Source: Phycisphaerae bacterium
GTDB lineage: Bacteria > Planctomycetota > Phycisphaerae > Sedimentisphaerales > UBA12454
Direction: 5' to 3'
Assembly (NCBI GenBank): GCA_026386845.1
Contig: JAPLMW010000064.1
Span: forward strand, 33,427 to 97,426
DNA: 64,000 bases
Position numbers and translations under genes: made by a program. This document shows, one piece after another, positions 8,412 through 61,713 of the stretch; position 1 is the stretch's first letter; each line of letters starts with the position of its first letter. The notes below the pieces were generated by a model that had not been told where the DNA came from, did not search any database, and was given only the letters and a program-made list of their open reading frames with translations.

Positions 8412-8474
8412 TTATTATTTATATTTAGACAATGCAACAGAGCCGCGACAGTTATGGAGCGGTATTTTAACATC

Positions 8475-8540: not shown

Positions 8541-9179
8541 TCACTTTCCCTTATATTTCTTCAAATCTTCTTCTAACAGATAACTTCTGAACGGCTCATT
8601 CCTGAAACACGGAAAATTCAGAGGCGCGTAATCTTCTTCTCCCGCCGCCAGTACAAATTTATCACGCGCAAAAGCCGCGATGATTCGGTTCTCCGGACTG
8701 TCCGGCAGATGAAATGACAATCTCTTGCCGTTGCTCTTGTTGAATTGTGCTATGCAGTAGTATATCCCTCTTTGGCGGCGAACGCATACGCCGATATATC
8801 CTGAAGTATTTTTGCATTTTTTATTTAAGGCGTTTTGTCTGACGTTCACGATACGCAAATTTTTTCTGCGGTTGTCCAAAGGGTTTCTGTTTTTATGGTC
8901 AACTATATCGCCTTCTTTAGCGTTCATTATAAAACGCGAAAGCGTAATGCATTTGACAGGTCTCTTTTTGCCCGGCCTTGCGGCTTTGGTGCGGTTTTCG
9001 AAGATAATTTGCGGATAGCCTGCCGAAGAAATTCGTACTGCGGTGATATCACCGTTATATTTTTTGTAAGGCAGCTCGTGTTGGGTGCTTATAATTTTAT
9101 AATAAATGTCCGGGTCAAGTTTTATCAGTCGTCCTCTGATTTTAAGCATCAGGTAGTTAATTTTGCATTTTGTCGCCAT
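8541..9179 (-). CDS. HNH endonuclease with AP2 DNA-binding domain (free-standing homing-endonuclease-like)
   Basis: 212 aa. IVDHKNRNPLDNRRKNLRIV is an HNH_3-type motif. SGYIGVCVRRQRGIYYCIAQFNKSNGKRLSFHL...AAFARDKFVL is AP2-like. Confidence 0.75.
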   Translation of the reverse strand: MATKCKINYLMLKIRGRLIKLDPDIYYKIISTQHELPYKKYNGDITAVRISSAGYPQIIFENRTKAARPGKKRPVKCITLSRFIMNAKEGDIVDHKNRNPLDNRRKNLRIVNVRQNALNKKCKNTSGYIGVCVRRQRGIYYCIAQFNKSNGKRLSFHLPDSPENRIIAAFARDKFVLAAGEEDYAPLNFPCFRNEPFRSYLLEEDLKKYKGK

Positions 9180-9214
9180 ATTAATCTCCTTGTAAATTTA
9201 ATTTGATAATTCGT

Positions 9215-9249
9215 GTTTAGCCCCCAGTTTTACTGGGGGTTTTCTTTTC
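9215..9249 (+). repeat. TTAGC-plus-hairpin element (terminator-like)
   Basis: GTTTAGC, then the stem CCCCCAGT/ACTGGGGG with a TTT loop, then TTTTCTTTTC. Confidence 0.6.
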
Positions 9250-9250
9250 G

Positions 9251-9332
9251 GGTTAGCCCTGCCATTATTTATCCTGAGCGTAGTCGAAGGACTATGGCAG
9301 GGTCAGAGCCCCAAGCGTTAGCGCGGGGTAAT
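9251..9332 (+). repeat. composite intergenic repeat: GGTTAGCCCTGCCAT hairpin with nested CCTGAGCGTAGTCGAAGGA unit, then CAGAGCCCCAAGCGTTAGCGCGGGGT unit
   Basis: The stem CCCTGCCAT (9257-9265) pairs with ATGGCAGGG (9294-9302). The same modules recur at 11733-11815 and 11917-11945 in the same orientation. Confidence 0.8.
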
Positions 9333-9402
9333 AGATTTGAGGGGGCAATTTTATTGTGGATATAATTAGACGTGTTTGTATTGGTTCGCATTGAACCGTT
9401 TA

Positions 9403-9455
9403 CAGTTTACAGAAAAATTTGAAATACTGTTAGCCGTAACCTGTTTACTGTAAAC
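9403..9455. repeat. GTTTACA/TGTAAAC motif cluster (left copy)
   Basis: CAGTTTACAGAAAAATTT (9403-9420) and the palindromic CTGTTTACTGTAAAC (9441-9455). The first is present in inverted form and the second identically at 12075-12113. Confidence 0.7.
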
Positions 9456-9677
9456 ATTTTGTGCAAATATGCACAAAAATTTAACTAATTGTCAAATAAC
9501 AAGAGTATTTTAACTTATCACATAACAAAAGTCAAGGGGAAAAAATAATTTTCTACTCTCGAATTTCGATTCTCTATTTTCAGCCCCCTTCCGGGGGGTG
9601 TCGCTCTTACTTTAGGAATGCTGCTTTGATGAAGACGGGGGGAATTATTTATTCTTTCAATTTTTCAAGAAATTCGT

Positions 9678-9728
9678 GGTTAGCCCCGTCATCTTAAATC
9701 CGCCGCAAAGGCGGATTTGATGACGGGG
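9678..9728 (+). repeat. TTAGC-plus-long-hairpin element
   Basis: GGTTAGC is followed by the nested stems CCCCGTCATC...GATGACGGGG and AAATCCGCC...GGCGGATTT. Confidence 0.7.
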
Positions 9729-9866
9729 TTCGTCTCTGAAATCTGAACTCTCAAATTTGAGATATGTTTCCCCTTTCACACTTTTCACACCCTTCTCACT
9801 TTATCCCATCACCGCTTCGGCGGCTATCTCATCGGGGCACTTCATCGGGGGTAATTGCGAGGAAAT

Positions 9867-9891
9867 CAGAGCCGCAAACGTTAGTGAGTGG
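9867..9891 (+). repeat. third, diverged copy of the CAGAGCC-CAA-CGTTAG unit
   Basis: CAGAGCCGCAAACGTTAGTGAGTGG compares with CAGAGCCCCAAGCGTTAGCGCGGGG (9304) and CAGAGCCCTAAGCGTTAGCGCCGGG (11917). Confidence 0.55.
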
Positions 9892-9989
9892 TATTCCTTT
9901 ATCTATTTATGTAAAAAAACAGGGTGTGATTCAAACCTGCATTGAGAAAGTTGCGGCAAAGGAGAAAAATTGATAGTCGCTGATTGCTA

Positions 9990-10514
9990 TTACCTAACTG
10001 CCTTTGGGGCAAAAAATTCAATCGTTCTGATCAGTGATCTAAAGGTGTCCACAGTTTCTTGCTCATGAGAGTCAACTCTCGATACAAGGTCGCTTGCATA
10101 TGTATATATTTCTACCCATTTCCACTGGTCTCTCATCGATGTCAATATTGAAAACATAGATATCGGCAAATAGATACGTATTACTGCTCCGGCAATTTTC
10201 TCATGCTCTCCCCTTTTCTTTCCCTTTGTTATAATGCTACCATTAACAATATGAAGTAAGATATGACCAATACATCGTTCACCTTCTTCAGAATACCGAG
10301 AACTTTCCTGCTCTCCAAAGAAATCTATATGAATCGAAACTGTTTTCTTGTCATGTGCCGGAATACCCTGTTTCCACTCTTCACAGTTAACCTCAAAATA
10401 CTCTCCTTCCAATTCCATCTTTATATGTATGGCCGGTTGAGGAGATTTTGATGTTTCGGCAAATCCAGTATATAACCACGATTTTTGTATACGAACCAAG
10501 GCTCCAAATCTCAT
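9990..10514 (-). CDS. hypothetical protein, no recognisable domain (partner of SIR2-like gene)
   Basis: 174 aa, soluble, with no motif I can assign. It lies 81 nt downstream of the SIR2-like gene on the same strand and shares its AT-rich composition. Confidence 0.6.
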   Translation of the reverse strand: MRFGALVRIQKSWLYTGFAETSKSPQPAIHIKMELEGEYFEVNCEEWKQGIPAHDKKTVSIHIDFFGEQESSRYSEEGERCIGHILLHIVNGSIITKGKKRGEHEKIAGAVIRIYLPISMFSILTSMRDQWKWVEIYTYASDLVSRVDSHEQETVDTFRSLIRTIEFFAPKAVR

Positions 10515-10595
10515 TCTAATTCTCCGTATCGATATATATGTATATTCAACCGTACTCTTGCAGTTAATTTTTATCTGGCTACTTAGCTAAAGAAT

Positions 10596-11501
10596 TTATA
10601 ATCCAACAATACTTGATATTTCTTCAAATTTGTCAAGCCAATAACCCTTTAGGGAAATATTATTCTTGCCATTTCTAAATTGATTAACCCATTGGTCGAA
10701 ATTATTCCGCTCATTCAAACCTGAGCAATAGATGAAATCTGCATTCGTATTTGCTATAGCATTCCAAATATGTGTATCATGAGGTCTTATTTTTATTCCT
10801 ATAGCAATAACTCTTTTGGCATTTTCAATTAATTTTTCAAATCTGTCTCTTTGTCCTTCTAAAAATTGTTGACCGGACGTTGCTCTTTTCTGTGGTTCAA
10901 AGTAACTCATAACAGGAGGAAAGGCATCATTAGTTATTCTCTGATGAAATTCATTTGCATTTCCAATCACTTTAATCTCCCCATTAATTTGAACACCCAT
11001 CGCTGCAAGTGATACAGCATTTGCTACCCCTCTGACACTTTCACAAAATAAATGGCAACAACCATGTGGCAGATTTAATTCAATTTGTGCATTTGAAGGT
11101 ATCCCTATAACGGGTTGTAAGCCTGTGGTAAGAAGCGATAGCTCCAGAAGTCGTTCATAGTTTAGGGTGACTATTGCTCCATTCCAGTTATGACGTTTGA
11201 TTTTTTGAGCTAATTGATAGTAAAGATTTGTATTTATAGGCCGAAACTCAAAGAAGTATGCGGCCATAGCTCTTTGTAGAATTGGCAGGTCATGAGGTTT
11301 TTCTTTTGCAATTCTGATAATTCCTAATTCAAAATCGTTCTGAAGATCGGTAATATAGACGCTTGGTAATTGCCCCCATCCTGGAGGATTAAATTTTCTT
11401 AATTCTCCGAGAAGATTATTTACTAGAGGTGGAGTCCCTTTACTATCAGAACCATGAGAGGCTCCAGCTCCAAATAATATAATATTCTCAGGCATGCTCA
11501 T
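10596..11501 (-). CDS. SIR2-like (SIR2_2-type) domain protein, stand-alone
   Basis: 301 aa. N-terminal IILFGAGASHG (GAGxS Rossmann start). IVTLNYERLLE corresponds to the TTNYD motif. LNLPHGC is the conserved HG. RVIAIGIKIRPHDTHIWNAI corresponds to the IGYS..D motif. No zinc ribbon and no fused sensor domain. Confidence 0.65.
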   Translation of the reverse strand: MSMPENIILFGAGASHGSDSKGTPPLVNNLLGELRKFNPPGWGQLPSVYITDLQNDFELGIIRIAKEKPHDLPILQRAMAAYFFEFRPINTNLYYQLAQKIKRHNWNGAIVTLNYERLLELSLLTTGLQPVIGIPSNAQIELNLPHGCCHLFCESVRGVANAVSLAAMGVQINGEIKVIGNANEFHQRITNDAFPPVMSYFEPQKRATSGQQFLEGQRDRFEKLIENAKRVIAIGIKIRPHDTHIWNAIANTNADFIYCSGLNERNNFDQWVNQFRNGKNNISLKGYWLDKFEEISSIVGL

Positions 11502-11732
11502 ATTTTTTATCCAACCTAATAATCTACCACACTTTTTGCCAAAGCATTTTAATATGTCATTTTGCTCTTTGATGTTTAAATTTTTGATTTTCCTTCTATT
11601 TATGTTGTTCGCCTCGGCCGATGTATCTCAAAGCCTTTAATTCTCTGCTCTATAATACCGCAAATCTCCCTTTTTACCACCAAATTCCCCGCCTCGTTTT
11701 TCTACTTCCAACTTTCGATTTTCTCGCCTTTG

Positions 11733-11815
11733 CCTGTCCTGAGTTTATCGAAGGAGTGCTGGTTAGCCCTGCCATCACAATGGCAGGGTTCGGCCGCCCC
11801 TTAGGCGGCATTTTT
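11733..11815 (+). repeat. composite intergenic repeat (right-hand copy): CCTGTCCTGAGTTTATCGAAGGA unit, GGTTAGCCCTGCCAT hairpin, GGCCGCC hairpin
   Basis: The modules match those at 9251-9302. The GGCCGCC-CCTTA-GGCGGC hairpin resembles hairpin 1 of the RAYT-flanking REP. Confidence 0.8.
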
Positions 11816-11916
11816 CTAAAATCTCTAATCTTCAATTTTAAATCCCCTCTGTGAAAAACCGGCGCGTTCCTTTAGTTATTGAAAAATTCACCCACCTCCA
11901 GCGTGATTTCCCGCCA

Positions 11917-11945
11917 CAGAGCCCTAAGCGTTAGCGCCGGGTCAT
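11917..11945 (+). repeat. CAGAGCCCTAAGCGTTAGCGCCGGGT unit (right-hand copy)
   Basis: Near-identical to 9304-9329. Confidence 0.75.
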
Positions 11946-12074
11946 TGCTTTTTTTTTTATCTGTAGTTTTTATCTTTTATTTTTTATTTTTGATATTGTT
12001 TACTAGCGACCAGCGACTAACAACTGCCAACTTATGACTTGTGTCTTCCTGCCTTAGTGGCAGGGTTTTTCAAA

Positions 12075-12113
12075 ATTTCTACTTAAATTTTTCTCTGTAA
12101 ACTGTCCGCTGTT
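12075..12113. repeat. GTTTACA/TGTAAAC motif cluster (right copy)
   Basis: AAATTTTTCTCTGTAAACTG is the reverse complement of the left CAGTTTACAG(AG)AAAAATTT. CTGTTTACTGTAAAC (12099-12113) is identical to 9441-9455. It ends 18 nt before the ATG at 12131. Confidence 0.7.
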
Positions 12114-12130
12114 TACTGTAAACTATAGTT

Positions 12131-13033
12131 ATGGAACTTACCTGGACAATGAGAATAAGGATTTTGGCCTCGCTTGCAATCGGCATTGTGCTGCTCGGTC
12201 TTTTGCCGGCCGGTCTCGTCAAGCCTCCTGCCGACGGCGTTTTTGCCGTTCTGAGCGGCAGCATCAGCATCGGCGATTTACTGATTTGCGCCTCTCTGGC
12301 CTTCATTGCAGGTTTCTTGGCTTCGGCAATCAGCACTCCTTACGGCGCAAGGATAGGAATACTCGCAGCCCCGGCCGGGCTTGCGGTCTGGGCTTTACAA
12401 AGCGCACCGCTTTCAGCGATTTTTCAGATGGCTCCGGCCGCGCAGGATAGAATGGATGTCTATTCAAAACTGAAATTTGAAGGCTTTCTCTGGCTGGCAA
12501 TCGTAATTTGCGGCTTTTGCGGTGCTATATTGGCTGATAAAATTATTAGAAGAAAAGGCATTGGATCGGTGGATGAAGCGAAGCCGGTTTTTCCGATGCC
12601 GCAGTTTGCCCGGATAGCGATATCGGTTATAGGGACTGTATTTATCGCTAATTTCCTGATTAACGTTCTCGCCGGCGGAATTGGTTATCCGGACTCAAAG
12701 GTAACTCACGTTACGGCTCAGCCTGCGAATCTTCAGATAGCGTTTGCCGTTTTCATTACCTTTGGGGTTTGCGGCTTTTTAGCCAAAGTTTTGCTGGATA
12801 GCAAAGCTTTTTGGCCTGCGGCTGCCTCTGCACTTTTAATCTCTTATTCTGCAATTACTTACGTCAAAAACGATTTTATGGCTCATATCAGCGGTTTCTG
12901 GCCTGCGAATTTCTTTATAAAGCCTGTTACGGCTGTTTTACCTGTTCAGATGGTCGCCTTTGCCTGTTTGGGGGCTGTATGGGGCTATTGGTTAGCCGTG
13001 GACTATAATTGGTGGCGAACTCATCAGACCTGA
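12131..13033 (+). CDS. hypothetical polytopic membrane protein
   Basis: 300 aa with about 8 hydrophobic segments and no recognisable family motif. Confidence 0.6.
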   Translation: MELTWTMRIRILASLAIGIVLLGLLPAGLVKPPADGVFAVLSGSISIGDLLICASLAFIAGFLASAISTPYGARIGILAAPAGLAVWALQSAPLSAIFQMAPAAQDRMDVYSKLKFEGFLWLAIVICGFCGAILADKIIRRKGIGSVDEAKPVFPMPQFARIAISVIGTVFIANFLINVLAGGIGYPDSKVTHVTAQPANLQIAFAVFITFGVCGFLAKVLLDSKAFWPAAASALLISYSAITYVKNDFMAHISGFWPANFFIKPVTAVLPVQMVAFACLGAVWGYWLAVDYNWWRTHQT

Positions 13034-45086: not shown

Positions 45087-46082
45087 ATGATAAGCTGCAA
45101 AAAGCCAAAAAGCAAGGATTTTAATATCCTGTTTACCTGCATCGGCAGAAGAGTATCCCTTCTAAACAGCTTCAAAAAAGCCGCAAAAGAGCTAAAACTT
45201 AACTGCCGATTTCTCGGCACCGAAACAACAGAACTAAGCTCCGCCCTTCAGCTTTGCGACAAGAAATTTATTGTCAAACCCACAACCCATCAAGGCTATA
45301 TAAAACAGCTTCTAAAAATTGTTAAACAAGCCAATGTAAAGCTGCTGGTGCCGACAGTTGACCTCGATTTACAAATTCTTGCCAAAAACAAGGACAAATT
45401 CGCTGCTGCCGGCTGCATTGTGCTTGTGTCAAAACCACAGGTTGTAAATATTTGTCAGGATAAACGAGAGACTTTCAAATTCCTTATTAAAAACGGTTTC
45501 GATACTCCCAAAACATTAACCGCCAAACAGGCACTTGCCAAAAAGAATCTCAAATATCCTTGTTTCTTAAAACCCTGGGATGGCTACGCAAGTAAAGGAA
45601 ATGCCATAGCCAGAAACCACAGGGAGCTTATTTTCTATACAAAAAAAATCCCAAACTGTATCGTTCAGGAATTTATTGACGGACAGGAATTCACCTGCGA
45701 TGCTTTCGTTGACTTTAAACTTCAGGCCAGATGCGTCGTGCCAAGAAAACGCATTGAGACAAGAACAGGCGAGGTCAGCAAGAGTAAAATAATCAAAGAT
45801 TCCAAAATAATACGCCGAACAACAGAGCTGATAAAAAAACTCGGTGCGGGTCCGGGAGTTATTACCGTTCAGTTGATACAAACCAAAAATGAAAAAATAA
45901 AATTCATAGAAATCAATCCGCGATTTGGCGGAGGAGCGCCATTGTCCATAAAGGCCGGTGCAAATTTCCCGAAATGGATTTTGCAGGAACTATGCGGCAA
46001 AAATCTTAAAATTAAATTCGACTGTTTTAAAAATAATCTGACAATGCTGCGATATGACGCTGAAGTCTGGTTAAAAACTTGA
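45087..46082 (+). CDS. ATP-grasp domain protein
   Basis: 331 aa. FLKPWDGYASKG, IVQEFIDGQEF, FIEINPRFGG. Confidence 0.75.
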   Translation: MISCKKPKSKDFNILFTCIGRRVSLLNSFKKAAKELKLNCRFLGTETTELSSALQLCDKKFIVKPTTHQGYIKQLLKIVKQANVKLLVPTVDLDLQILAKNKDKFAAAGCIVLVSKPQVVNICQDKRETFKFLIKNGFDTPKTLTAKQALAKKNLKYPCFLKPWDGYASKGNAIARNHRELIFYTKKIPNCIVQEFIDGQEFTCDAFVDFKLQARCVVPRKRIETRTGEVSKSKIIKDSKIIRRTTELIKKLGAGPGVITVQLIQTKNEKIKFIEINPRFGGGAPLSIKAGANFPKWILQELCGKNLKIKFDCFKNNLTMLRYDAEVWLKT

Positions 46083-46095
46083 TGGAGAATATAAA

Positions 46096-47247
46096 GTGCT
46101 TACAGACATTGTAGGACCGTATAAGGAAATAAGCTGGATATTACCATTCTGGCCGGTGTTGCTAATCTCTTTCGTAGCGGCATTACCAGGAACATGGCTG
46201 TGCAAAAAAATCGCTCTTAAATTCGGTGTTGTAGATAAACCCGATGGAACAGTCAAAACACATGCTCATCCTATCGCTTATCTTGGGGGACTTGGTATCC
46301 TTTTAGGTTTCACCGCAGGTATTTTGACAGGGATAACTTTCTTTGAACCTACCGAGATATTTAAATTATCCATGAAACTTCTTATAGGAATATTGGCGGG
46401 AGCATCGGTGACATGTTTCGTGGGTCTAATTGATGATCTCTTTAATATCCAACCTTTTCAGAAAATTTTTGGACAGATGCTTGCAGCTATTATTTTAATA
46501 GCTGTCGGAATCAGGCCAAATCTCGAGATTATTTTTACACAATTAGGCCTAACGCTACCGCCAATACTAGATCCTATTCTGGGTGTGCTAATAGTTATAA
46601 TCTTTGTTTTGGGAGCTACGAACTCTCTTAATCTAATCGACGGCCTCGACGGTTTGTGTGCCGGAGTAACCGCTATTATTACTATCGGTATGCTTATTCT
46701 GACTATTCATATTGGTACATGGAATCAATCAAGTGTTTACGATCCTATTCGTGCGATAGTCGGGTTGGCTCTTGTCGGAGGTACTTTGGGATTTTTGCCC
46801 TTCAATAAAGCACCTGCAAAAATATTTATGGGCGATGCAGGTAGTATGTTGTTAGGCTTTGTCGTGGCGGCAATGATGATACTGTTCACGGAAAGACAGC
46901 CGCTGTGGTGGATGGCATCATTAATGATATTCGGACTTCCTATTCTCGATACGGCAGTGGCGCTGGCAAGAAGATTGTTAAATAAAAGGCCTTTATTTGT
47001 TTCGGACCGCGGTCACATATACGACCAAATGATAGATAGAGGAATACCTCTGAAAAAAACTGTTGGTATCTGTTATATTCTCGCCGGTATGTATGCGGTG
47101 ATAGGATTGATAATGTGCCCATTAAGACACAGGTACGCGGCAGTTATATTAGCTGTTACAGTTACAATCTCTGCCGTGGTTATATGGAAAAAAGGGTTTT
47201 TGAAAATGGAAGGCTTAAGAGGGGCTGTAAAGAAATTGAAGAGTTAA
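46096..47247 (+). CDS. polyprenyl-phosphate HexNAc-1-phosphate transferase (MraY/WecA/WbpL family)
   Basis: 383 aa, polytopic. IDDLFNI, NSLNLIDGLDGL, MGDAGSM. Confidence 0.85.
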   Translation: MLTDIVGPYKEISWILPFWPVLLISFVAALPGTWLCKKIALKFGVVDKPDGTVKTHAHPIAYLGGLGILLGFTAGILTGITFFEPTEIFKLSMKLLIGILAGASVTCFVGLIDDLFNIQPFQKIFGQMLAAIILIAVGIRPNLEIIFTQLGLTLPPILDPILGVLIVIIFVLGATNSLNLIDGLDGLCAGVTAIITIGMLILTIHIGTWNQSSVYDPIRAIVGLALVGGTLGFLPFNKAPAKIFMGDAGSMLLGFVVAAMMILFTERQPLWWMASLMIFGLPILDTAVALARRLLNKRPLFVSDRGHIYDQMIDRGIPLKKTVGICYILAGMYAVIGLIMCPLRHRYAAVILAVTVTISAVVIWKKGFLKMEGLRGAVKKLKS

Positions 47248-47272
47248 TCCTTCGACCTCGCTCAGGACAAGG
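47248..47272 (-). repeat. dispersed CCTGAGC...TCGAAGGA family repeat (inverted orientation)
   Basis: The plus strand reads TCCTTCGACCTCGCTCAGGACAAGG, followed by a GATTGAAGATTGAAGATT low-complexity stretch. Confidence 0.6.
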
Positions 47273-48602
47273 ATTGAAGATTGAAGATTTTAGAAAAAAG
47301 AAAAACAATTCCTGTCGCTGACAAAATGCAAAGAAAAGGTATTGTCCCCAGATTATAAAGTGAATGTGTAATAAAAGTAGCAAAAGGAAAATACCAGACC
47401 GCATAGAGAATTATTCCCGCCAACAAAAACAAACCGATACGCCAGTTGCTGAAAATTCCGGCAATCGCCATAATCCATAAAAACAGATAAAAAACGCTTA
47501 AAGCCCATTTTTCGGCCGTTATAACTTTGACTGCAAGAAAAGGTTTGACAAACGCAGGAAAATAATACTCTATCGCATTTAAGACAAGTTTTTTTATAAA
47601 TAAAGCAGGGTGTTCTTTTATGTGTTCAATCATTTTTCTGTTGGCAAGTTCTTCTAGCTTTATATCTATAAACCCCTTCCAGTGAGTGAGCGTCTTTTCA
47701 GTACCTTCTATCCCCATGATTCGAAAACTCGCATCAATAAAATCTTCACTTCTTCTTCGCGGTTCAGCTTCAATCCCTGTCCAATGCATATTACCGTTAA
47801 AATAATCAAGCCCTCCACCGCCAGATACTGGTATAAACCTATTAAACACTACCCAATTTCTATAAGTCCATGGAGCAATAAGACAAACCGTAACCATCAC
47901 CATTATCAGCATGGCTAACAAATGTTTTGTGCTTTTGCAAAGAGCTGTGATAAACAAAATAAATGTAAAAATAAAAACCACTGCCAGCATAGCCGCATGA
48001 GAAAGAGCCAGACTTGCACCTGTTAAACCAATAATAATGCCTCGCACTATAAATCCATACTTTAGTTTTTCCTTCAACAGACCAAAAACGTCTAATAACT
48101 CAATCGCCGCAAAATAAGCAAAAAACAGGTACAAGAACGTTTGCAGAATCGACGTCATAGGATTTTTGGCATTCCAGTAAACCCAGGGATTGACCAGAAA
48201 GAGCAATAATGCCGTCACTGCCACATTTTTATTATATAACTGTTTTGCTATTCTAAATATCATCATTCCGATAAAACCAACGAGAATACTTTGCGGAATA
48301 ACAATAACATATCGCTGCAAGTGTTCAGGAAAGAGAGCTACCGGCACAAGGAAAAACGGATACAGCGGCGGACGATGAAAAACCGGAGAACCGCCTTTTT
48401 CAAAAACATAACCGTCGCCGGCAACAATACTCCTGGCAAGCTGGATGTAGCCGTCATTGCCCGCACCAAAATTTTTGCTTAAGCCCGTAATTGGTGAAAT
48501 CACAAAAAGAATTACACAGCAACCCAAAAGACAAATAATAAAAGATAACCAGAATGCCTGATTACCGTTTTGGGGAACAAACTTTTTCAAACTATCCATC
48601 AT
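47262..48602 (-). CDS. GT-C-type membrane glycosyltransferase (ArnT/PMT-like)
   Basis: 446 aa with more than 10 TM segments. The early loop ...GDGY...FHRPPLYPF resembles GT39/GT83 enzymes. This is tentative. Confidence 0.5.
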   Translation of the reverse strand: MMDSLKKFVPQNGNQAFWLSFIICLLGCCVILFVISPITGLSKNFGAGNDGYIQLARSIVAGDGYVFEKGGSPVFHRPPLYPFFLVPVALFPEHLQRYVIVIPQSILVGFIGMMIFRIAKQLYNKNVAVTALLLFLVNPWVYWNAKNPMTSILQTFLYLFFAYFAAIELLDVFGLLKEKLKYGFIVRGIIIGLTGASLALSHAAMLAVVFIFTFILFITALCKSTKHLLAMLIMVMVTVCLIAPWTYRNWVVFNRFIPVSGGGGLDYFNGNMHWTGIEAEPRRRSEDFIDASFRIMGIEGTEKTLTHWKGFIDIKLEELANRKMIEHIKEHPALFIKKLVLNAIEYYFPAFVKPFLAVKVITAEKWALSVFYLFLWIMAIAGIFSNWRIGLFLLAGIILYAVWYFPFATFITHSLYNLGTIPFLCILSATGIVFLFSKIFNLQSLS

Positions 48603-48612
48603 ATCAACCGGT

Positions 48613-50169
48613 TTATTTCCTTTCCGCAGTATAGGCTTCCGTCAGATTTTCCACTGCGGTTATCTTTGTCTCGTGATACTCTTCTTCGCTGTTGACCTGC
48701 CAGATATTATCCTTGCTTTTTACGCCTTTAATAATATTCTCAACCGCGGTCATAGCCGTAAGCATTGAATGGTCCTGATTGTTGTAGCGATGCATGCCAT
48801 TGCGACCGATTAAAAAAAGATTGTCGAAACTATCCGTATAATTCCTTATGACATCAAACCGGTCATAACCGCCAAAATAAGCGGGATAAGTCTTTTGTAT
48901 CCTTATAACAACACCGTCAAGTATATCCTTTTTTTCAATTATGCCGATTTTTTCAAGTTCTGCGGCCGCAAATTTTTTGAATTTTTCGTCTTCCATACAC
49001 CAAAGCTCATCTCCTTCATTACAGAAGTATTCGAGACCCAGCCAGACGGTATCCGGGTCGGCAACCATGTAAGGACTCCAGTTGTTAAATATCTGAAGGC
49101 GACCGATTTTGACGTCATTTTCCTGAATGTAAATCCAGTTGTCCGGTACGATGTTATTAATCGTTTTTATGCTCGTGTCATTCTTTATTCTTAGCTTTTT
49201 AGCCAGCAGACCTACAGTAATAAAATCTCTGTAGCACAAACCCGCCGCAATTTTCTTTACTTTATCAGGAACACCTTGTCCCATTGATTCTATCAAATCT
49301 CTCACAGGCATACTTGAAAAAACAAAATCCGCCTTAAACTCCTTCAGCTCTTTCGTTTTTTCATCTCTAACTCTCAGGGAAACGATTTTATCATTTTGAT
49401 TTTTTAAGCCTATTACCTTATGGTTTAGATAAATTTGGCCGCCTTTTGATTTTACAATATCCGCAACAGTTTCCCATAATTGTCCGGGACCATATTTAGG
49501 ATATAAGAACTGACTTATGAGGCTGGTTTCTATTTCTTTCTGACCTATTGACATATCCCTGCGAATAGCCGCTTTAATAGCATGCTTTATAGCTCTTTTT
49601 ATCGAAATCCCTTTTATTCGCTGGGCGCCCCACTGAGGATGAATTTTATCACAGCTTATACCCCATACTTTTTCTGTATAATCTTTGAAGAATGTTTTAT
49701 AAAGCTCCCTGCCGAAACGATTAATTAAAAAATCCTCAAGCGATTTTTCCTCTTTTACGGGATAGATTTTCGCTTTTATATAACTGGCTGTAATTTTAAG
49801 GGTTCTAAAAAAGCCGAGATTAGCCACTGTTTTTAAGGTCAACGAGATGGGGTAATCGAAAAATTTCCGCATAAAAAGAATTCTGGAAATTCTATTTCGA
49901 AGCAGCATTACTTTATCTTGTTTTTGAGGGTCAGCCTCGACCGGAAACAAATCAAGCCAGAACTTCATCACCCTGTCCGACTTTGAAAAGAACCGATGGC
50001 CGCCAATATCAATACGATTGCCTTTGTAGTTGACGGTCTTGGAAATGCCGCCAATATCCCCTGTCTGCTCAAAGATTACAGGCTTGATATCAGTCTTATT
50101 GAGCAATTCGAATGCCGTCGTAAGACCTGCAGGTCCTGCACCAATTATTATTGCTGTTTTTTGTGTCAT
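48613..50169 (-). CDS. FAD-dependent oxidoreductase (amine-oxidase/UDP-galactopyranose-mutase-like)
   Basis: 518 aa. It has the N-terminal dinucleotide fold [17 protein letters not shown] and sits in a glycan locus. Confidence 0.6.
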
Positions 50170-50182
50170 ATATTTTTATTAG

Positions 50183-51223
50183 CTACCTTGGCTGAGGCAC
50201 TTTCCAGATTTTAATTTCAGAACTGACCATACAACCTGTAGCAAGGTATTTTGAGTCCGGCGAAAAGGCAATATCAGAAACCGTAAATTCATTTGCATGA
50301 AATGATGTGATTTTTTTACCCGTCTCGATATCCCAGAACCATACGGTGCTTGCAGGCTCGGTATCTGCGGCAAGCGTTCGACCATCCGGGCTGACGGCTA
50401 TGCAGCAAATGTTCTGCTTTTGGTGACTGGGGGTATTATACAACGGCATTTCAAAAACTCTAATGGTCCGGCCTGTTGCTGAATCGAGAGCGACAATATA
50501 CCTGACTTTTTCAACAACAAAAAGCGTTTTGCCATCAGGCGAAAACTCAACACCAGTAAATTTACTATATTCTGGAAAGGTCTTTTCCCACAGTATTTTT
50601 TCGTTATTTACATCTGTTACAAAAACCCAGGCCCGGCCTTTTTCTCCCACACCGGCTATGAAATTACCGTCATTCACTATGGCAAAATCATACAGCAGGA
50701 AATCTTCTGCCCGCGTATTTTTCTTGAACACATACGATATATTTTTAAAATCAGAATCAAAAAGACCTAATTTTAACCAGTCCTTCTGTTCGCCTTCCTT
50801 AAACAGGACCGAAACCGCACCATATCGGCTGTTCTGCGATATTTTTGCTTTTTTACATTCAGAACCATAAGGTATAGGTAAATCTGCCAATTTCTTTTCT
50901 GCCTTCAAATCGGCCAGGATTAGCCCGGCCGGCATAGCTAATGGAACATATACTATTCTGTCGCCGGTAAACGGTATAACTATTTGTGATTTCGGCTTGG
51001 CAACAACCGGCCAGACGGATAAATCCTTCCATTGCCAGGTGTAAACGTAATTATTTTTTGAGATGACAGAGAGTTTATTATCAACAGTCAAAACACTATC
51101 CGTTCCTTCGATGGGTCCCTGAAGCTGACGAACAAGAGCACTTCTAAAATTGGCAAAAACCATAAAAAATACAATCACTGCCGCTATTATGAAGACAATA
51201 ATATTTCTATTTTTTTTGCTCAT
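50183..51223 (-). CDS. membrane-anchored beta-propeller (WD40-like) protein
   Basis: 346 aa with an N-terminal TM anchor. It has repeated SPDGKTL / SPDGRTLA / SPDSKYLATG...IKIWKV blades. Confidence 0.55.
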   Translation of the reverse strand: MSKKNRNIIVFIIAAVIVFFMVFANFRSALVRQLQGPIEGTDSVLTVDNKLSVISKNNYVYTWQWKDLSVWPVVAKPKSQIVIPFTGDRIVYVPLAMPAGLILADLKAEKKLADLPIPYGSECKKAKISQNSRYGAVSVLFKEGEQKDWLKLGLFDSDFKNISYVFKKNTRAEDFLLYDFAIVNDGNFIAGVGEKGRAWVFVTDVNNEKILWEKTFPEYSKFTGVEFSPDGKTLFVVEKVRYIVALDSATGRTIRVFEMPLYNTPSHQKQNICCIAVSPDGRTLAADTEPASTVWFWDIETGKKITSFHANEFTVSDIAFSPDSKYLATGCMVSSEIKIWKVPQPR

Positions 51224-51822
51224 AACTGTTTTTCTCTCGCCAAATCCCTGATATAAACGTTACTTCTAACGCCGTGGCTGTTAATTTGTGTGTTTAATTC
51301 AAATCCGCATTTTTTATATAATTTGTTGGCAGCTTCATTATCTGCAGCCACTAACACCTTAACTTTTTCAATTCTTCTTTTTCGGCATTCTTCAAAACCA
51401 GCATCAACAAGCTGCTTTGCAATTCCTCTGCCTCTGCCATCAGGGACTATGGCTATTGAGAGCAATTCAGCGTCCGGCAAATTCATCTTTTTCATCTTTG
51501 ATGGATAAAAAAGATTGTCCCATATTTTCTTAATTACCCGCGAGAATAACATTCTCTTAGCAAGCACAAAAATAAATTTGAAACCTTTCTTTAACGCCAC
51601 ATATTTATATAGCCTTGAAAGATTTATAGAAAATGCAACGAAGCCAAGTACCTTGTCGTCTTCTATTGCCACGAAGCCGAAGCTGTTTTTATCCTCTGCG
51701 ATAGCTTCATATAACGCCGCTACAAACTCCTGCCCCAAAGAGCTTATAAATCCGGTTGGAATGCCCTGGATATGCAATACCGCACATTTTCCTGCATATT
51801 TTGATTGTAAGCTGTGGATCAC
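51220..51822 (-). CDS. GNAT-family N-acetyltransferase
   Basis: 200 aa. VPDGRGRGIAKQLV is the acetyl-CoA binding R-x-x-G-x-G/A motif. Confidence 0.8.
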   Translation of the reverse strand: MIHSLQSKYAGKCAVLHIQGIPTGFISSLGQEFVAALYEAIAEDKNSFGFVAIEDDKVLGFVAFSINLSRLYKYVALKKGFKFIFVLAKRMLFSRVIKKIWDNLFYPSKMKKMNLPDAELLSIAIVPDGRGRGIAKQLVDAGFEECRKRRIEKVKVLVAADNEAANKLYKKCGFELNTQINSHGVRSNVYIRDLAREKQL

Positions 51823-51826
51823 TCTG

Positions 51827-52675
51827 TCAAAAGTTTCTTAATATGCTTTTTATGGTTGAAAACTTGAAATCTAAAAGCAATTTATCGACTTTGCCTTTTA
51901 CCGTCTGCCTATTTCTCATCTGCGATTTATGAAATTTAAAGGCTTTTATTTTGCCTTGACCAGTAAAATTGTCCAATTTCAATAGCACTATATCTGTATC
52001 AATTTCATAAGGATGCAGATAGATAATAGCCGGGCGTTTTTTTTGTATGTGTCCTATAGCCCATTTTGTATAGAAATATGGTAAGTGTCTCATGTACCCC
52101 CCACCAATACCAAGTTCCTTTATGCCCAGAGATACGGTTGACATCGGCACTTCAATAATGCTTTGTCCATTAGTCAAAGGCATTCTATGAATTTCTTTCT
52201 TGAATCCCGGCCAGCCATAACGCCTGCCCTGCATTGGCGATATACTTGAATCATAAACAAAACCTTCTTCAGCAAGAATTTCCAGTGCCCATTGAGTATC
52301 CTTGTTTATGGAAAAAGCCGGAGCACGATGCCCAATTGCCTCTTGGCCGGAAAGGTCTTCAAGAAGTTTTTTAGCATCACCTGTTTCTTTTTTGAATTCA
52401 TCTCTTGACAGTTTAAAAATCTGACGATGATAAAAACCGTGAACAGCAATTTCATGGCCGGCTCGAGAGATTTCTTTTATTAGTTCCGGGAAGCACTGAG
52501 CAACTTCGCCCAATATAAAGAACGTCGCTTTTGTATTATACTCGGCCAAAACCTGCAGAAACCAACGTGTATTCCTGACAACAGCTTCTGACGGAATTGC
52601 GTCTTTAACATGCAGCCAGTCTCTGTATAAAATACTCCAGTAATCCTCGACGTCAATGGTAAGTGCGTTTAGCAT
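51827..52675 (-). CDS. polysaccharide deacetylase (PEP-CTERM-locus subfamily-like)
   Basis: 282 aa. ALTIDVEDYW, FFILGEVA, HGFYH. Confidence 0.75.
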   Translation of the reverse strand: MLNALTIDVEDYWSILYRDWLHVKDAIPSEAVVRNTRWFLQVLAEYNTKATFFILGEVAQCFPELIKEISRAGHEIAVHGFYHRQIFKLSRDEFKKETGDAKKLLEDLSGQEAIGHRAPAFSINKDTQWALEILAEEGFVYDSSISPMQGRRYGWPGFKKEIHRMPLTNGQSIIEVPMSTVSLGIKELGIGGGYMRHLPYFYTKWAIGHIQKKRPAIIYLHPYEIDTDIVLLKLDNFTGQGKIKAFKFHKSQMRNRQTVKGKVDKLLLDFKFSTIKSILRNF

Positions 52676-52714
52676 AAAACTGTTGCGGTAAGTTCTCCGG
52701 CACTAAAATCAATA

Positions 52715-53740
52715 TTACACCAAATTACGACTGATATACGGACTAAGCAGATTTGCCATCCATAGCGGCAACCGTTTCCACAGTTCAATTTTTCTCTGGT
52801 ACTTTGGACTGTCCGGGCTAAGGATAGACAATTGACGGCCGGGACAGACCCAGTATTGATAGTGCAGTTCGACTGGTTCGGGGCCCCACTGCTGCTTGAA
52901 ATGATGTGTGTTACCACCAATCGTGCATCGCCCAAAGTCAAAATACGCCGCACCCGCAAGACAAGAATATTTTATAATTAACCAGTATAACAAATTGTTG
53001 GGACACAGATTATTGTATTCCACTAATGTTGCTGCCCAGGGGATTTCTACAAGTCCGTTATAGCAAATAACAAAACCAGCTCCAATTACTAATTCGTGCA
53101 ACCGCGCAACGAATATCCGACTATAATGTGGAAACTCCTGCAAAATACTGTGCATAAGCTCGCGAGGATAAGCGGGGGTGCCGAGTTGATGCATACGAAT
53201 GGCATAAACCTTGTAAAAGTCGTTCAGAAACTCACTGCCACCATTAGTAACAATAATGTTGGATTTTTCGGCCTTGCGCACCTGGTTTCGAACTTTAGGG
53301 TCGAAAGATTTCCAAATTCTCTCAGGGTCGGGAGAAAGGCAAAGATGCATTGATATTTTTCCTTCGCGAGATTCAAGGTTATACGGCAGCGGTTCGCTGT
53401 TACGAAATTCTATTGATTCGCATTTAAGCCGTTTTGCCAAATCCACAGCAAACTCAAAAAGAGCGTCGCGAGCCTCCGGACTGTCCACAAGCATGCCGCC
53501 GTAATTACTAACCCCCTGTGATACCATATGATTGCCAAACAAAAAACTTCGGATATGCGTCAGCGGCAACACCCCGCACGCCCTGCTGTTATCACGTGCG
53601 ATAAGGTAAAACTGTTTTTGACCGGTTGCTCGCTCAACCATTGCACCCCAGGCGGGCAGGTGACAAATTTTGGCGTCCGGCCTTTGTGAAATAAAGGCAT
53701 CACAAGCCGGGTCAGATATATCAAGAATGCCTACGTTCAC
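52715..53740 (-). CDS. FemAB-like acyltransferase (PEP-CTERM system-associated type)
   Basis: 341 aa. ICHLPAWGAMVE..., FDFGRCT..GNTHHFKQQWG. It lies next to the deacetylase, as in XrtA-type EPS loci. Confidence 0.65.
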   Translation of the reverse strand: MNVGILDISDPACDAFISQRPDAKICHLPAWGAMVERATGQKQFYLIARDNSRACGVLPLTHIRSFLFGNHMVSQGVSNYGGMLVDSPEARDALFEFAVDLAKRLKCESIEFRNSEPLPYNLESREGKISMHLCLSPDPERIWKSFDPKVRNQVRKAEKSNIIVTNGGSEFLNDFYKVYAIRMHQLGTPAYPRELMHSILQEFPHYSRIFVARLHELVIGAGFVICYNGLVEIPWAATLVEYNNLCPNNLLYWLIIKYSCLAGAAYFDFGRCTIGGNTHHFKQQWGPEPVELHYQYWVCPGRQLSILSPDSPKYQRKIELWKRLPLWMANLLSPYISRNLV

Positions 53741-54519
53741 AGATATGGTTTGTCTTCCTTAATATCTTGTATGCTATGGGAATCTTTAATTACTTCTGAA
53801 AACTGCTTCCACGCGGTTTTATCAAATAAGGTTACATTATATCTAATTTTCGAAAATAATTTTTTCATCTGTATTTTTGCAATCCGCTTACAACCAGCTT
53901 TCTCCATACCTCGAATTGAAGCAAGGTTTTTCTCTTCAACATCTATAAAAAATCCGTCAAAACCCTCTGATGCCAGTGTTTGACTCATATAACGAATTAT
54001 GTTTGGATAATTACCTTTTCCACGTGCTCTTTTTACGGTAACAGCGTTGTAAAACCATACCTGATTAGATTTAAGATTGAACGTCAAATGTAATCTATCT
54101 ATATATCTAAAGCCAAATTGTGCCCAGAAATAAGTGGCAATTCCTTTATCATCTATAATAGCAAAACATCGCTCACCCCGGTTAAATCTTCTACATATAT
54201 CAACTCGGTTCAAATACATAACGGCCAGCATTTGGCTGATATCAGATAGTGTCAGTTCTTTTATTTCAAGACTTGGTTCCGGCTCTCTCGCCTCTTCCGG
54301 CAGCAACTTCATTATAAACCTGGTCCTGTTTTCGAAAAGCCAACCAGTCAATGCAACCCAAATCCGTTTCGATAATTCCAGCCAACTATGATGCTGAACA
54401 AATTTGAGGATAATACTTGCGCAGGTAAATATCTGATTATCGTTTTTTCCGCTTTTTATTAATCGGTCTGTTTTCATCGTGATATGTAACTCTGCGAAAG
54501 TGCTGTCGGTTTCCGCCAA
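53737..54519 (-). CDS. GNAT-like acetyltransferase (start uncertain)
   Basis: The C-terminal half has VKRARGKGNYPNIIRYM and EEKNLASIRGMEKAGCKRI. The N-terminal ~70 codons have doubtful coding quality. Confidence 0.5.
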   Translation of the reverse strand: MAETDSTFAELHITMKTDRLIKSGKNDNQIFTCASIILKFVQHHSWLELSKRIWVALTGWLFENRTRFIMKLLPEEAREPEPSLEIKELTLSDISQMLAVMYLNRVDICRRFNRGERCFAIIDDKGIATYFWAQFGFRYIDRLHLTFNLKSNQVWFYNAVTVKRARGKGNYPNIIRYMSQTLASEGFDGFFIDVEEKNLASIRGMEKAGCKRIAKIQMKKLFSKIRYNVTLFDKTAWKQFSEVIKDSHSIQDIKEDKPYL

Positions 54520-54537
54520 GTCAAAATATGCCCCCTC

Positions 54538-55761
54538 TTACTTTTTTATTATAGATTCAAAAACCGCCTCAAAATGCTTTGTTCCAATCTTCAAGGAAAG
54601 TTCCTGTTGGTAAAATTTTCTTCCATTCTCCCCCATCGCATCCAACTGCGACTGAGGCATTGATTGAAACTTTTCGACCACCTCTGCAATACTTCGGGGA
54701 TTGCCAGGCTCACATTTCAGCCCCGCATTAGCTTTTAAAACCAAATCTGCCGCATCCCCTTCTACTCCTACAAGGATTGGTTTTCCGACAGACAAGTAAG
54801 CCTGAATCTTTGATGGAATAGTTATTCTAAACAGGGGATTATCTTTCAACTGAACGAGCAATACGTCCGCCAAGCTTAGGATGCTTCCCATTTTAGATAC
54901 CGGCTGACGTCCAATGAACAATACATTTTTTAGCCTCATATCTTTGGTTTTTTGTTTGAGAAACTCTGTTTCACTGCCATCACCAACAAAAACAAATTGA
55001 ATGTTAGGGTGCTTAGGCTGCACTATATCTGCGGCATCAATAACCGTATCCAATATTTGCACATTACCTATATTTCCTGCAAACATGACATTGAAGCGGT
55101 TTCTCAGACCCAATTCATCTGCTAAAGCCATATCCTTCTCTACTAAACAAATGTTAGCATCATCACACCAGTTATATATGACTTCGATTTTATCTTCGGG
55201 GACACCTCTATTACATAGTTCTTTCTTAAATCCCGGATAAGGAACCACAATTTTCCCGGCAGCCCAATATAAAAATCGACAACAGTGGCCCGCCAGCCAA
55301 AACCCGAATCTATTATTAAACATACCTGATTCTAACAGTGAGTCCGGCCAAAAATCCTCAATATCATAAACAAAAGGAACGCCTCGTAATAACTGTAACA
55401 AACAAGCTGGCAGGCATGAGGTTGGAGGCGGGTGATAAACATAAGCCACATCTGGTTTGTTAACCGCCCAAAGACCTATTGCCGTTGCTGAAATACCGAA
55501 ACTGGCATAGCTTAAAAACCGCTTTACGCTTGATCTGTCACGGCTTGGATATAGCGGAACGCGCACTACTGGGACACCGTCCATTTCCTCTCGCTGCAGC
55601 AACTGGAGGTGATATCCCGGATAAATCTTACCATAAGGATGATTGGGAAAGCCCGTCAGCACTTCAACTTCGTGCCCCAATTCCATTAGCTTTTTTGCAA
55701 ACGGCAGACCTTTAAGGAATGGTTCGGGCTGAAACCATTGTGTAATCAATAAGATTCGCAT
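54538..55761 (-). CDS. GT4 glycosyltransferase, WbuB/WcaI-like
   Basis: 407 aa. MRILLITQWFQPEPFLKGLPFAKKLMELGHEVEVLTGFPNHPYGKIYPGY is typical of WbuB-type (L-FucNAc-type) transferases. Confidence 0.7.
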   Translation of the reverse strand: MRILLITQWFQPEPFLKGLPFAKKLMELGHEVEVLTGFPNHPYGKIYPGYHLQLLQREEMDGVPVVRVPLYPSRDRSSVKRFLSYASFGISATAIGLWAVNKPDVAYVYHPPPTSCLPACLLQLLRGVPFVYDIEDFWPDSLLESGMFNNRFGFWLAGHCCRFLYWAAGKIVVPYPGFKKELCNRGVPEDKIEVIYNWCDDANICLVEKDMALADELGLRNRFNVMFAGNIGNVQILDTVIDAADIVQPKHPNIQFVFVGDGSETEFLKQKTKDMRLKNVLFIGRQPVSKMGSILSLADVLLVQLKDNPLFRITIPSKIQAYLSVGKPILVGVEGDAADLVLKANAGLKCEPGNPRSIAEVVEKFQSMPQSQLDAMGENGRKFYQQELSLKIGTKHFEAVFESIIKK

Positions 55762-55827
55762 TTTTAGACAAAACCATTAAATTTAATATTGTCCCAGTCT
55801 TGTTTTATCGCTAAATATACAGAACAT

Positions 55828-56286
55828 TTATCTCAGTCGTTTTTGTTCTTCCGCCACATCATATCCTTCGAATGCAACATGTCTATACGTGTCTTCGTGG
55901 ACTGGATCATGTTGCTCAGACCCATATGACACTATCACAGCGACTTCTTTATGTTCATTTATTAAAGCATGCGCAGTTCCAGGCCCGGCATAAACAATTT
56001 TTGGATTTTTAGGCGATATCGTTACTGCCCTCTTGCCGCCTTTAGAATTGCTTAGCAACACAATAGCTTCTCCATGCACGCAAGTGAACCATTCTCTTTT
56101 ATTTAGATGGTAATGGTCGCCTCGGCGCTGGTGGGGCTCAATCGAAAATGTGTAGAGTTGTCCTTGTCCAGGAATTCGCGCATCCTTAAAACGTAATATT
56201 TCAAACAACATCCCCCGTGTATCTACATAACAAGTAAGATCGCGAACGTCAAACGGCTCTTTCCATTCCAATTCAAAAGTATCCAT
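55828..56286 (-). CDS. stand-alone cupin protein (CapF C-terminal / WxcM-like)
   Basis: 152 aa with a beta-barrel pattern containing RGDHYH...HG...H. It sits within the sugar-nucleotide operon. Confidence 0.5.
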   Translation of the reverse strand: MDTFELEWKEPFDVRDLTCYVDTRGMLFEILRFKDARIPGQGQLYTFSIEPHQRRGDHYHLNKREWFTCVHGEAIVLLSNSKGGKRAVTISPKNPKIVYAGPGTAHALINEHKEVAVIVSYGSEQHDPVHEDTYRHVAFEGYDVAEEQKRLR

Positions 56287-56338
56287 TTATTTCATACACC
56301 TTGCGACAATATAACAAAAATTACCGCACGATTCTATC

Positions 56339-57478: not shown

Positions 57479-57510
57479 TCTTTGTTTCCTTTTGAATAAA
57501 TTATCTTCGC

Positions 57511-58617: not shown

Positions 58618-58653
58618 AAAATTTTAATCTCCTATGTAAAATGCCAAGTATAT

Positions 58654-59688: not shown

Positions 59689-59835
59689 ATATAAGTTCGA
59701 AAACCAGTAATTATGCCATTATAATCGTTCCGGCACAACTGAATATTTCTATGCAAATGGGTGTCAGACTTTCTCATCAAAAACGAGCATAATACGCTTT
59801 CGGCTATACTGCCCATTTGTGCGTTTCTATTAAGA

Positions 59836-61646: not shown

Positions 61647-61713
61647 AAGCCTTTCTGTCCTTTTTAATGTAAATGAAACTTTTTATATAGGTCTTGCCAC
61701 ATCAAAAGTGATG

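Follow-up and report, generated by a model that had tools for sequence, protein, structure and literature searches.

To our knowledge, the prokaryotic SIR2 defence effectors characterised so far are all coupled to a sensor or a partner, be it a SLOG domain plus a TIR protein, HerA, a prokaryotic Argonaute (pAgo), a STAND module or a DSR body. In SIR2-HerA (Nezha), the SIR2 protein is approximately 380-430 aa long and forms a dodecamer bound to the HerA ATPase encoded next door. ThsA and DSR1/DSR2 are also NADase effectors of the SIR2_2/SIRim type and use a catalytic Asn/His pair. ThsA has an additional SLOG domain and depends on the TIR protein ThsB, and DSR1/DSR2 have sensor bodies of ~700 aa fused to them. 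Canonical sirtuins (CobB, Sir2Af2, SIRT3/5) and SirTM contain a zinc module with four cysteines and act on the lysines of proteins or ADP-ribosylate them. This module is needed by canonical sirtuin deacylases (PMC12700824), and its absence is the hallmark of the SIR2_2/SIRim branch (PMC12700824; bioRxiv 10.1101/2024.09.18.613514), a clade that is 12-fold enriched in defence neighbours (bioRxiv 10.1101/2024.09.18.613514). A precedent for a SIR2 protein without a sensor comes from vertebrates, where FAM118A and FAM118B are stand-alone SIR2_2 proteins whose NAD processing is controlled by filament formation (PMC12700824). Here we analyse a 64-kb stretch (hereafter the window) of contig JAPLMW010000064.1 from the metagenome-assembled genome of a Phycisphaerae bacterium, and describe a gene for a 301-aa protein that we hold, by a modest balance of probability, to be an autonomous single-domain SIR2_2/SIRim protein, a putative NAD+-cleaving effector of the abortive-infection type, with an incidental 174-aa neighbour.

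The first-pass annotation of the window had proposed that the two genes form a candidate defence cassette. The open reading frame (ORF) call returned both genes, their shared orientation and the 81-nt gap between them as that annotation had given them:

10596..11501, minus strand: SIR2-like gene, 301 aa (ORF; exact database match P0001; AlphaFold2 model, Foldseek matches and Pfam SIR2_2 matches of its relatives)
10515..10595, minus strand: 81-nt spacer between the co-oriented SIR2-like and 174-aa genes (sequence and fold)
9990..10514, minus strand: 174-aa gene from a very small family of unknown function, adjoining the conserved SIR2-like unit and not part of it

NCBI places the start of the SIR2-like gene at its third codon (299 aa, NTW93_07310) and lists the 174-aa gene as NTW93_07305; both are annotated 'hypothetical protein'.

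The AlphaFold2 (AF2) model of the 301-aa protein, which was built on 53 homologues, reached a predicted local distance difference test score (pLDDT) of 94.3 and a predicted template modelling score (pTM) of 0.92. Searching the PDB with this model using Foldseek yielded 71 chains at E<=0.001, and the best 50 of these 71 were all SIR2 or sirtuin chains. The highest-ranking matches were the SIR2 chains of SIR2-HerA/Nezha (8sub, 8j4u, 8wld and 8w9l), with E-values down to 6.6e-10, template modelling (TM) scores of 0.55-0.64 and a probability of 1.00. They were followed by Sir2Af2, CobB, SirTM and SIRT3/5 (E 1e-7 to 1e-5), with which the 301-aa protein shares the Rossmann fold and the catalytic His. 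In the viral structure library BFVD, viral sirtuins were the only matches to the model. The 301-aa protein is therefore a real, minimal SIR2-fold protein, consisting of a Rossmann fold with a helical insertion.

Sequence conservation pointed in the same direction. In a broad family alignment (A4) of 56 homologues that share 23-60% identity, the invariant residues are G11, A12, G13, S15, G17, S18, N114, Y115, H146, G147, P196, K205, G235, D242, H244 and W246, and these fall largely within the following elements:

11448..11471, minus strand: GAGASHGS, residues 11-18, the NAD-binding glycine loop that follows the first Rossmann strand (invariance in A4; contains the end of IILFGAGAS)
11160..11162, minus strand: codon of Asn114 in VTLNYERLLE, the putative catalytic Asn (invariant; aligns with 8w9l)
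11064..11066, minus strand: codon of His146 in NLPHGCCH, the putative catalytic His (H146 and G147 invariant; aligns with 8w9l)
10887..10919, minus strand: PPVMSYFEPQK, residues 195-205, a motif specific to the family, in the insertion that separates the catalytic His from the C-terminal Rossmann half (conservation)
10764..10778, minus strand: DTHIW, residues 242-246, the C-terminal Rossmann motif after strand VIAIG in VIAIG..RPHDTHIW (G235, D242, H244 and W246 invariant)

Within the family-specific motif, P196 and K205 are invariant throughout the broad family and PPVMS is invariant within the close subfamily. The Pfam family SIR2_2 (PF13289) was matched by 21 of the 56 relatives (best E 1.7e-6), while the canonical Pfam family SIR2 (PF02146) was matched by none of them. 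The A4 profile aligned TLNYDlLlE and kpHGscn of the family with TTNYDLLME and KLHGSIN of PsSIR2 (8w9l) at E 0.0016, and also touched residues 107-154 of ThsA (6lhx), which correspond to the N-to-H region of the family. A four-cysteine zinc module (CxxC...CxxC) is absent from both the 301-aa protein and the family alignment; the only cysteine cluster, HGCCHLFC beside the catalytic His, is not retained across the broad family. Structure and transitive homology place the 301-aa protein, most likely, as a divergent single-domain protein of the SIR2_2 ('SIRim') type that lacks a zinc ribbon. Its membership of SIR2_2 is by transitive homology only, because the SIR2_2 model is matched by some of its relatives and the window protein has no such match of its own. 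The SIR2_2-type identity assigned in the first-pass annotation is upheld by the SIR2 fold and by the matches of the relatives, and the IILFGAGAS, TLNYE, LPHG and VIAIG..RPHDTHIW motifs that it had listed are all present in the translation.

Of the described systems, SIR2-HerA lies closest, its SIR2 protein being both the best structural match and the best sequence-profile match (8w9l). The two share TxNYD/E and HG catalytic motifs and the lack of a zinc ribbon, but their identity is only ~13-15%, and no HerA/DUF87-type gene was adjacent in the window or in the loci examined by Pfam and PADLOC scans. The sole DUF87-type match was a weak one to a TrwB/TraG-type protein in L098, ~7 kb from the SIR2-like gene. 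Family members also matched the PADLOC SIR2 and Dsr1 models, although weakly. Unlike ThsA, the 301-aa protein is a SIR2 domain alone, and the defining features of Thoeris (a SLOG or Macro domain and an adjacent TIR ThsB) were not found, a TIR neighbour being present in one of ~80 loci. In agreement with the first-pass annotation, the alignment and the Pfam and PADLOC scans revealed no zinc ribbon and no fused SLOG, HerA, pAgo, STAND or DSR body on the 301-aa protein or on adjacent genes. The features of DSR1/DSR2, Avs5 and SPARSA (a large fused sensor body or STAND NTPase, or a paired APAZ/short pAgo) were likewise not detected on the protein or its neighbours. Because these partner or fused domains are missing, the 301-aa protein falls outside Thoeris, SIR2-HerA, DSR, Avs5 and SPARSA. 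FAM118A and FAM118B resemble it as single-domain SIR2_2 proteins of ~350 aa without a zinc module, but they are a vertebrate-specific paralogue pair and the likeness is an analogy of architecture only. A literature search turned up no paper on PDC-S21, a PADLOC candidate discussed below, or on a SIR2 system that stands alone in prokaryotes. What is new here is the bare SIR2_2 domain family as a candidate single-gene system; the kind of SIR2 effector is already known.

The one TIR neighbour occurs in L005, where P0007, one of the closest homologues on a long contig (61% identical), is followed 175 nt downstream by a gene for a 284-aa TIR-domain protein (9073-9927), with a TIR-STING gene ~5 kb beyond that. 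This arrangement recalls Thoeris, except that its SIR2 protein lacks SLOG. A Thoeris-like reading, which this locus had prompted, was rejected as a general pattern since it concerns a single locus.

We then considered whether the two genes could form a dedicated defence system, with the 174-aa protein serving the SIR2-like effector as sensor, regulator or antitoxin. The local arrangement favours such a pairing. The genes are co-oriented across an 81-nt gap that folds at -8.2 kcal/mol, i.e. without a strong hairpin, a hairpin scan found no terminator-like site on the minus strand ahead of the 174-aa gene, and a Shine-Dalgarno-type GGAG lies 9 nt 5' of its ATG, so that local co-transcription is possible. 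In addition, both genes are AT-rich relative to the window, and a small NADase needs some control. Comparison with other genomes gave a different picture. A word-indexed search with the 174-aa protein found only the protein itself, and a full HMMER search of 1.84 billion representatives returned three relatives at 37-42% identity. A profile of these relatives brought the family to seven proteins including the query, five of which are 218-233 aa long. No relative of the 174-aa protein was found by tblastn in 88 SIR2-like loci. Conversely, contigs were examined for six of these seven proteins (L089-L095 and L101-L104, some of them short), and neither tblastn nor a six-frame search with a profile hidden Markov model (HMM) of the SIR2-like family detected a SIR2-like gene on them; instead they carry DUF1016/YhcG, Peptidase_M16, DUF4469/U32, PEP-CTERM-like secreted proteins and XhlA-like genes. 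Since the 174-aa gene is not conserved beside SIR2-like genes elsewhere, the 301-aa gene is most likely a single-gene candidate rather than half of a two-gene defence system, and the 174-aa gene is probably an incidental neighbour from an unrelated, tiny family. We consequently set aside the two-gene cassette of the first-pass annotation and regard a dedicated pair as improbable; adjacency in one genome, as this case illustrates, is not evidence of a system.

The 174-aa protein itself has no recognisable domain and no TIR match in Pfam, PADLOC, NCBIfam or PHROGs, as the first-pass annotation had judged. Its AF2 model, from a four-sequence alignment, had a pLDDT of 49.5 and Foldseek returned nothing better than E 0.26, both of which are uninformative. 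The family exists in two forms, of ~170 aa and of 218-233 aa (P0124 and P0125-P0128), and P0124 has a C-terminal extension with transmembrane helices. In L101, a member sits between large repeat-rich and PEP-CTERM-like secreted proteins. The 174-aa family may be envelope-associated.

A search for any other conserved partner, based on naive ORF calling on both sides of the SIR2-like gene in ~80 loci followed by all-against-all BLAST, phmmer and Pfam, led to a similar outcome. A co-oriented ORF lay within 250 nt upstream in 47 of these loci and downstream in 36 (~45%). The latter figure could be taken to favour a two-gene system, but it is about what any prokaryotic gene shows, and the downstream genes are mutually unrelated even at BLAST E<1. 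Pfam matches among the adjoining ORFs comprised Trypsin_2 (twice), type I restriction-modification (R-M) helicases (twice), UvrD, TIR (once), PemK, a metallophosphatase, HNH and Cas4-like nucleases, and others. The family has no conserved partner gene and its neighbours are heterogeneous.

Only two partners recurred. The more frequent was a CxxC...CxxC zinc-ribbon protein of ~81 aa, which is absent from the window and present in nine of the 80 loci:

L024, 5670-5978: zinc-ribbon gene
L028, 5460-5984: zinc-ribbon gene
L032, 5679-5996: zinc-ribbon gene
L053, 5756-6001: zinc-ribbon gene
L055, 1900-2145: zinc-ribbon gene
L057, 5753-5998: zinc-ribbon gene
L064, 605-850: zinc-ribbon gene
L073, 5749-5994: zinc-ribbon gene
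L051, 6895-7203: zinc-ribbon gene

In eight of these loci the gene overlaps or abuts the SIR2-like start (the overlap is often 4-50 nt), and in the ninth, L051, it lies just downstream. Its product follows the pattern MP.S..Q...I...L......C..C....W.......CN.C.H...F.A.KLG.I and could serve part of the family as a regulator or antitoxin. In two further loci, which encode independent members 55% and 52% identical to the window protein, a Trypsin_2 serine-protease gene (L006, 7160-7996; L009, 7272-7988) ends 4-12 nt before the SIR2-like start. These loci could represent a protease-SIR2 operon variant, and this partner, like the zinc-ribbon protein, is absent from the window.

To place the 301-aa protein in a wider context, we examined the size and distribution of its family, which comprises 570 clusters at E<=0.001. 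The best 120 of these 570 clusters are 292-324 aa long, have no Pfam domain and are named 'hypothetical'. A pattern scan of one genome per species, which gives a lower bound, identified at least 96 carriers among 185,579 species, distributed sporadically over more than 20 phyla. Bacterial carriers include Bacteroidota, Thermotogae, Proteobacteria, Acidobacteriota, Chloroflexota, Nitrospinota, Planctomycetota, Chlamydiae, Cyanobacteria and the Candidate Phyla Radiation (CPR), and archaeal carriers include Methanothrix, Bathyarchaeia, DPANN, Thermoplasmata, Nitrososphaerota and Heimdallarchaeota. Identity between carriers is often 45-60% even across domains, and this scattered distribution of similar sequences indicates horizontal transfer. 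More distant members (23-31% identity) were present on 31 IMG/VR viral contigs, several of them near a contig end; the GenBank phage set contained no family member.

The SIR2-like gene is compositionally foreign in its host genome. Its G+C content is 0.360 and its G+C content at third codon positions (GC3) is 0.238, as against 0.450 +/- 0.036 and 0.469 +/- 0.068 for the 28 other long ORFs of the window, i.e. ~2.5 standard deviations (sd) lower for G+C and 3.4 sd lower for GC3. For the 174-aa gene the values are 0.387 and 0.331, ~1.7-2 sd below the same set. The AT-richness that the first-pass annotation had noticed by eye in both genes is thus borne out by measurement, the flanking genes it had named having G+C contents of 0.421 (8541-9179) and 0.492 (12131-13033). 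A second low-G+C stretch, with mostly co-oriented minus-strand genes of 0.38-0.44 G+C and GC3 0.36-0.47, spans positions 45087-63015, so the SIR2 islet is not the only low-G+C region of the window.

These data also bear on the idea that the 301-aa protein is a housekeeping or regulatory sirtuin-like enzyme of this planctomycete whose odd composition is incidental. The genes surrounding it in the window are ordinary (a metallo-beta-lactamase-fold gene, csrA and pheT), as they are at several other loci, which is what such an enzyme would lead one to expect. However, the carriers, although at least 96, are a tiny fraction of the 185,579 species and are scattered over bacteria and archaea at 45-60% identity. 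The protein also lacks the zinc module needed by canonical deacylases (PMC12700824) and has no Pfam SIR2 match, and the GC3 of its gene is 3.4 sd below that of the window genes. Taking both sides together, we consider a housekeeping role very improbable.

The genomic surroundings of the family were assessed from the annotated neighbourhoods of nine independent members. One contained transposases, an integrase and Mob genes, and one was a classical defence island with AAA_15/21, RmuC, UvrD, HNH, McrBC and a STAND-like helicase. Others carried TIR, TIR-STING and RhuM; a Multi_ubiq/ThiF module with Zeta toxin, ArdC and TrwB; an integrase and ParE; a prophage-like region with a serine recombinase; or a type II R-M pair. 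Another member was located near MazF on a plasmid of the archaeon Halorubrum. In 22 further loci with 150 neighbour proteins, MADS, AriA, DRT/AbiP2, R-M, PycC, AAA_21 and transposases were mixed with housekeeping genes such as Cpn60, TGT, ExoVII and ABC transporters. Judged from neighbour lists rather than from an enrichment statistic, proximity to integrases, transposases, R-M, McrBC, TIR-STING, DRT and PARIS is frequent but not universal. The 'defence islet' look described in the first-pass annotation is only partly borne out: the defence association comes from other genomes, and in the window the flanks are ordinary and the HNH gene is the only mobile-type neighbour.

The frequent transposases, integrases, plasmids and toxin-antitoxin genes nearby raise another possibility, namely that the protein is not an NAD+-depleting anti-phage effector but a toxic or selfish part of a mobile-element module (with a role in addiction, exclusion or conflict between elements), or an NAD+-dependent enzyme (an ADP-ribosyltransferase or deacylase) that modifies a specific target. 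The coupled ~81-aa zinc-ribbon gene of nine loci resembles an antitoxin or regulator, and SirTM-type ADP-ribosyltransferases are among the fold matches. Yet the best structural matches are defence NADases and not SirTM or deacylases, there is neither a zinc module nor a macrodomain partner, the small partner gene is missing from most loci, and defence genes recur in the neighbourhoods. We regard this explanation as unlikely, if less so than a dedicated pair or a housekeeping enzyme.

Homology and context suggest that the 301-aa protein probably has a defensive role as an autonomous SIR2_2/SIRim effector. By analogy with ThsA, DSR1/2, SIR2-HerA, SIR2-APAZ/SPARSA and Avs5, it would cleave NAD+ and the infected cell would then undergo growth arrest. 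The protein would probably be held inactive until, speculatively, a phage-derived trigger binds family-specific surfaces directly, candidate elements being the helical subdomain at residues 27-103 and the insertion at residues 150-210 with PPVMSYFEPxK (invariant P196 and K205). Homo-oligomerisation or filament formation might, speculatively, act as an alternative or added switch; filamentation activates ThsA and Avs5. As no sensor domain is present, direct trigger binding and/or oligomerisation or filamentation would be the most economical form of control. More tentatively, and as a possibility that we would place somewhat short of an even chance, the ~300-aa family may represent the smallest SIR2 immune protein that works by itself. 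A SIR2_2 domain without further parts would both sense infection, by way of its family-specific insertions or through filamentation induced by a trigger, and deplete NAD+. It would constitute an uncatalogued single-gene system that horizontal transfer has carried into bacteria and archaea, among them CPR, DPANN, Bathyarchaeia and Heimdallarchaeota.

Several observations weigh against an autonomous SIR2_2 effector. The 301-aa protein had no match at E<=1 in Pfam, NCBIfam or PHROGs, and in PADLOC it gave one weak, partial match, to PDC-S21 (E 0.002; residues 221-272 against positions 253-304 of the 336-position model). At the level of sequence profiles, the connection to solved SIR2 structures is weak (E 0.0016). 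We infer both the NADase activity and the role in defence from homology and context, and many loci, that of the window included, have ordinary housekeeping neighbours. An unregulated NADase would be toxic, and no regulator was found for the 301-aa protein. Furthermore, two subsets of the family have a tightly linked gene (zinc-ribbon in nine of 80 loci, Trypsin_2 in two of 80), and autonomy may therefore not hold for all members. Lastly, because the 174-aa gene is preceded by a Shine-Dalgarno sequence and by no terminator, a lineage-specific functional link between it and the SIR2-like gene is conceivable.

Searches of PDB sequences, both by phmmer with the 301-aa protein and with a profile of the close family, gave nothing meaningful. 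PDC-S21 and PDC-S25, single-gene candidates of similar length, were the most-matched PADLOC models in the family, PDC-S21 being matched by 20 of the 56 members (best E 1.5e-5) and PDC-S25 by five of the 56. These matches are weak and partial, and the window protein matches PDC-S21 over 50 residues only and not over its full length, the region around DTHIW being the only stretch that touches the model.

Should the autonomous effector be confirmed, how a bare NADase is kept off and then switched on becomes a direct question, and prokaryotes would have in this family an equivalent of the stand-alone FAM118 sirtuins of vertebrates. A widespread bare-SIR2 family overlooked by Pfam, NCBIfam and PADLOC would, moreover, be an added family for defence-finding tools.

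Outside the SIR2-like and 174-aa genes, the locus contains the following features:

8541..9179, minus strand: HNH endonuclease gene, 212 aa, homing-endonuclease type, a co-oriented neighbour (Pfam HNH_3 E 6e-7, PHROG 99 E 8e-20, PADLOC HEase)
9180..9989, no strand: non-coding flank, 810 nt, with G+C-rich hairpins starting TTAGCC and the motif CAGAGCCCCAAGCGTTAGCGCGGGGT (repeat and hairpin scans)
11502..12130, no strand: non-coding flank, 629 nt, upstream of the SIR2-like gene, with the same hairpin-plus-motif modules (at 11761, 11917 and 12095)

The islet consists of the HNH, SIR2-like and 174-aa genes only, within ~3.7 kb of 39% G+C. The first-pass annotation had labelled the HNH gene 'HNH-AP2'; its HNH part is supported by Pfam HNH_3 and PHROG 99, whereas an AP2 domain had no Pfam match at E<=1. 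We rejected the HNH gene as a recurrent neighbour of the family, since no similar protein was found in other SIR2-like loci. The ~0.8 and 0.6 kb of repeat-dense non-coding DNA described in the first-pass annotation correspond to the two flanks, both of which contain several short dispersed repeats and G+C-rich hairpins found nowhere else in the 64 kb.

Rfam at gathering thresholds gave no match, the flanks yielding sub-threshold noise only, and no transfer RNA genes were found. The flank repeats were also considered as integron attC sites, a reading that was rejected because the GTTAG motifs are direct rather than inverted and the spacers are 600-800 nt long. Terminator-like hairpins with T-runs occur on the plus strand at 9219-9241, 11793-11809 and 12047-12065; the islet genes are on the minus strand and no plus-strand gene ends there.

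The flank motif, (T)CAGAGCC[CG][CT]AA[AG]CGTTAG[CT]G..GGGT, usually stands just after a G+C-rich hairpin beginning TTAGCC, and its sites in the window lie at 9212-9337, 9678-9900 and 11761-11950, and also at 8438-8472. Rfam has no entry for it, and none of the SIR2-like loci contains it. An exact-pattern scan located it in 75 metagenome stretches (L105-L179; soil, freshwater, peat and sediment), against a rough chance expectation of ~15. The same hairpin-plus-motif layout recurs in L110, L113, L116, L127, L129, L135 and L147, tandem arrays with a period of 155-204 nt are present in L159 and L163, and in L138 and L133 the motif forms one arm of a 25-bp palindrome. The 4-bp stem around the conserved AAGCGTTAGCG core covaries (CCCC/GGGG, CCGC/GCGG), and the motif looks like a family of hairpins that is either protein-bound or related to repetitive extragenic palindromes (REP) or miniature inverted-repeat transposable elements (MITE).

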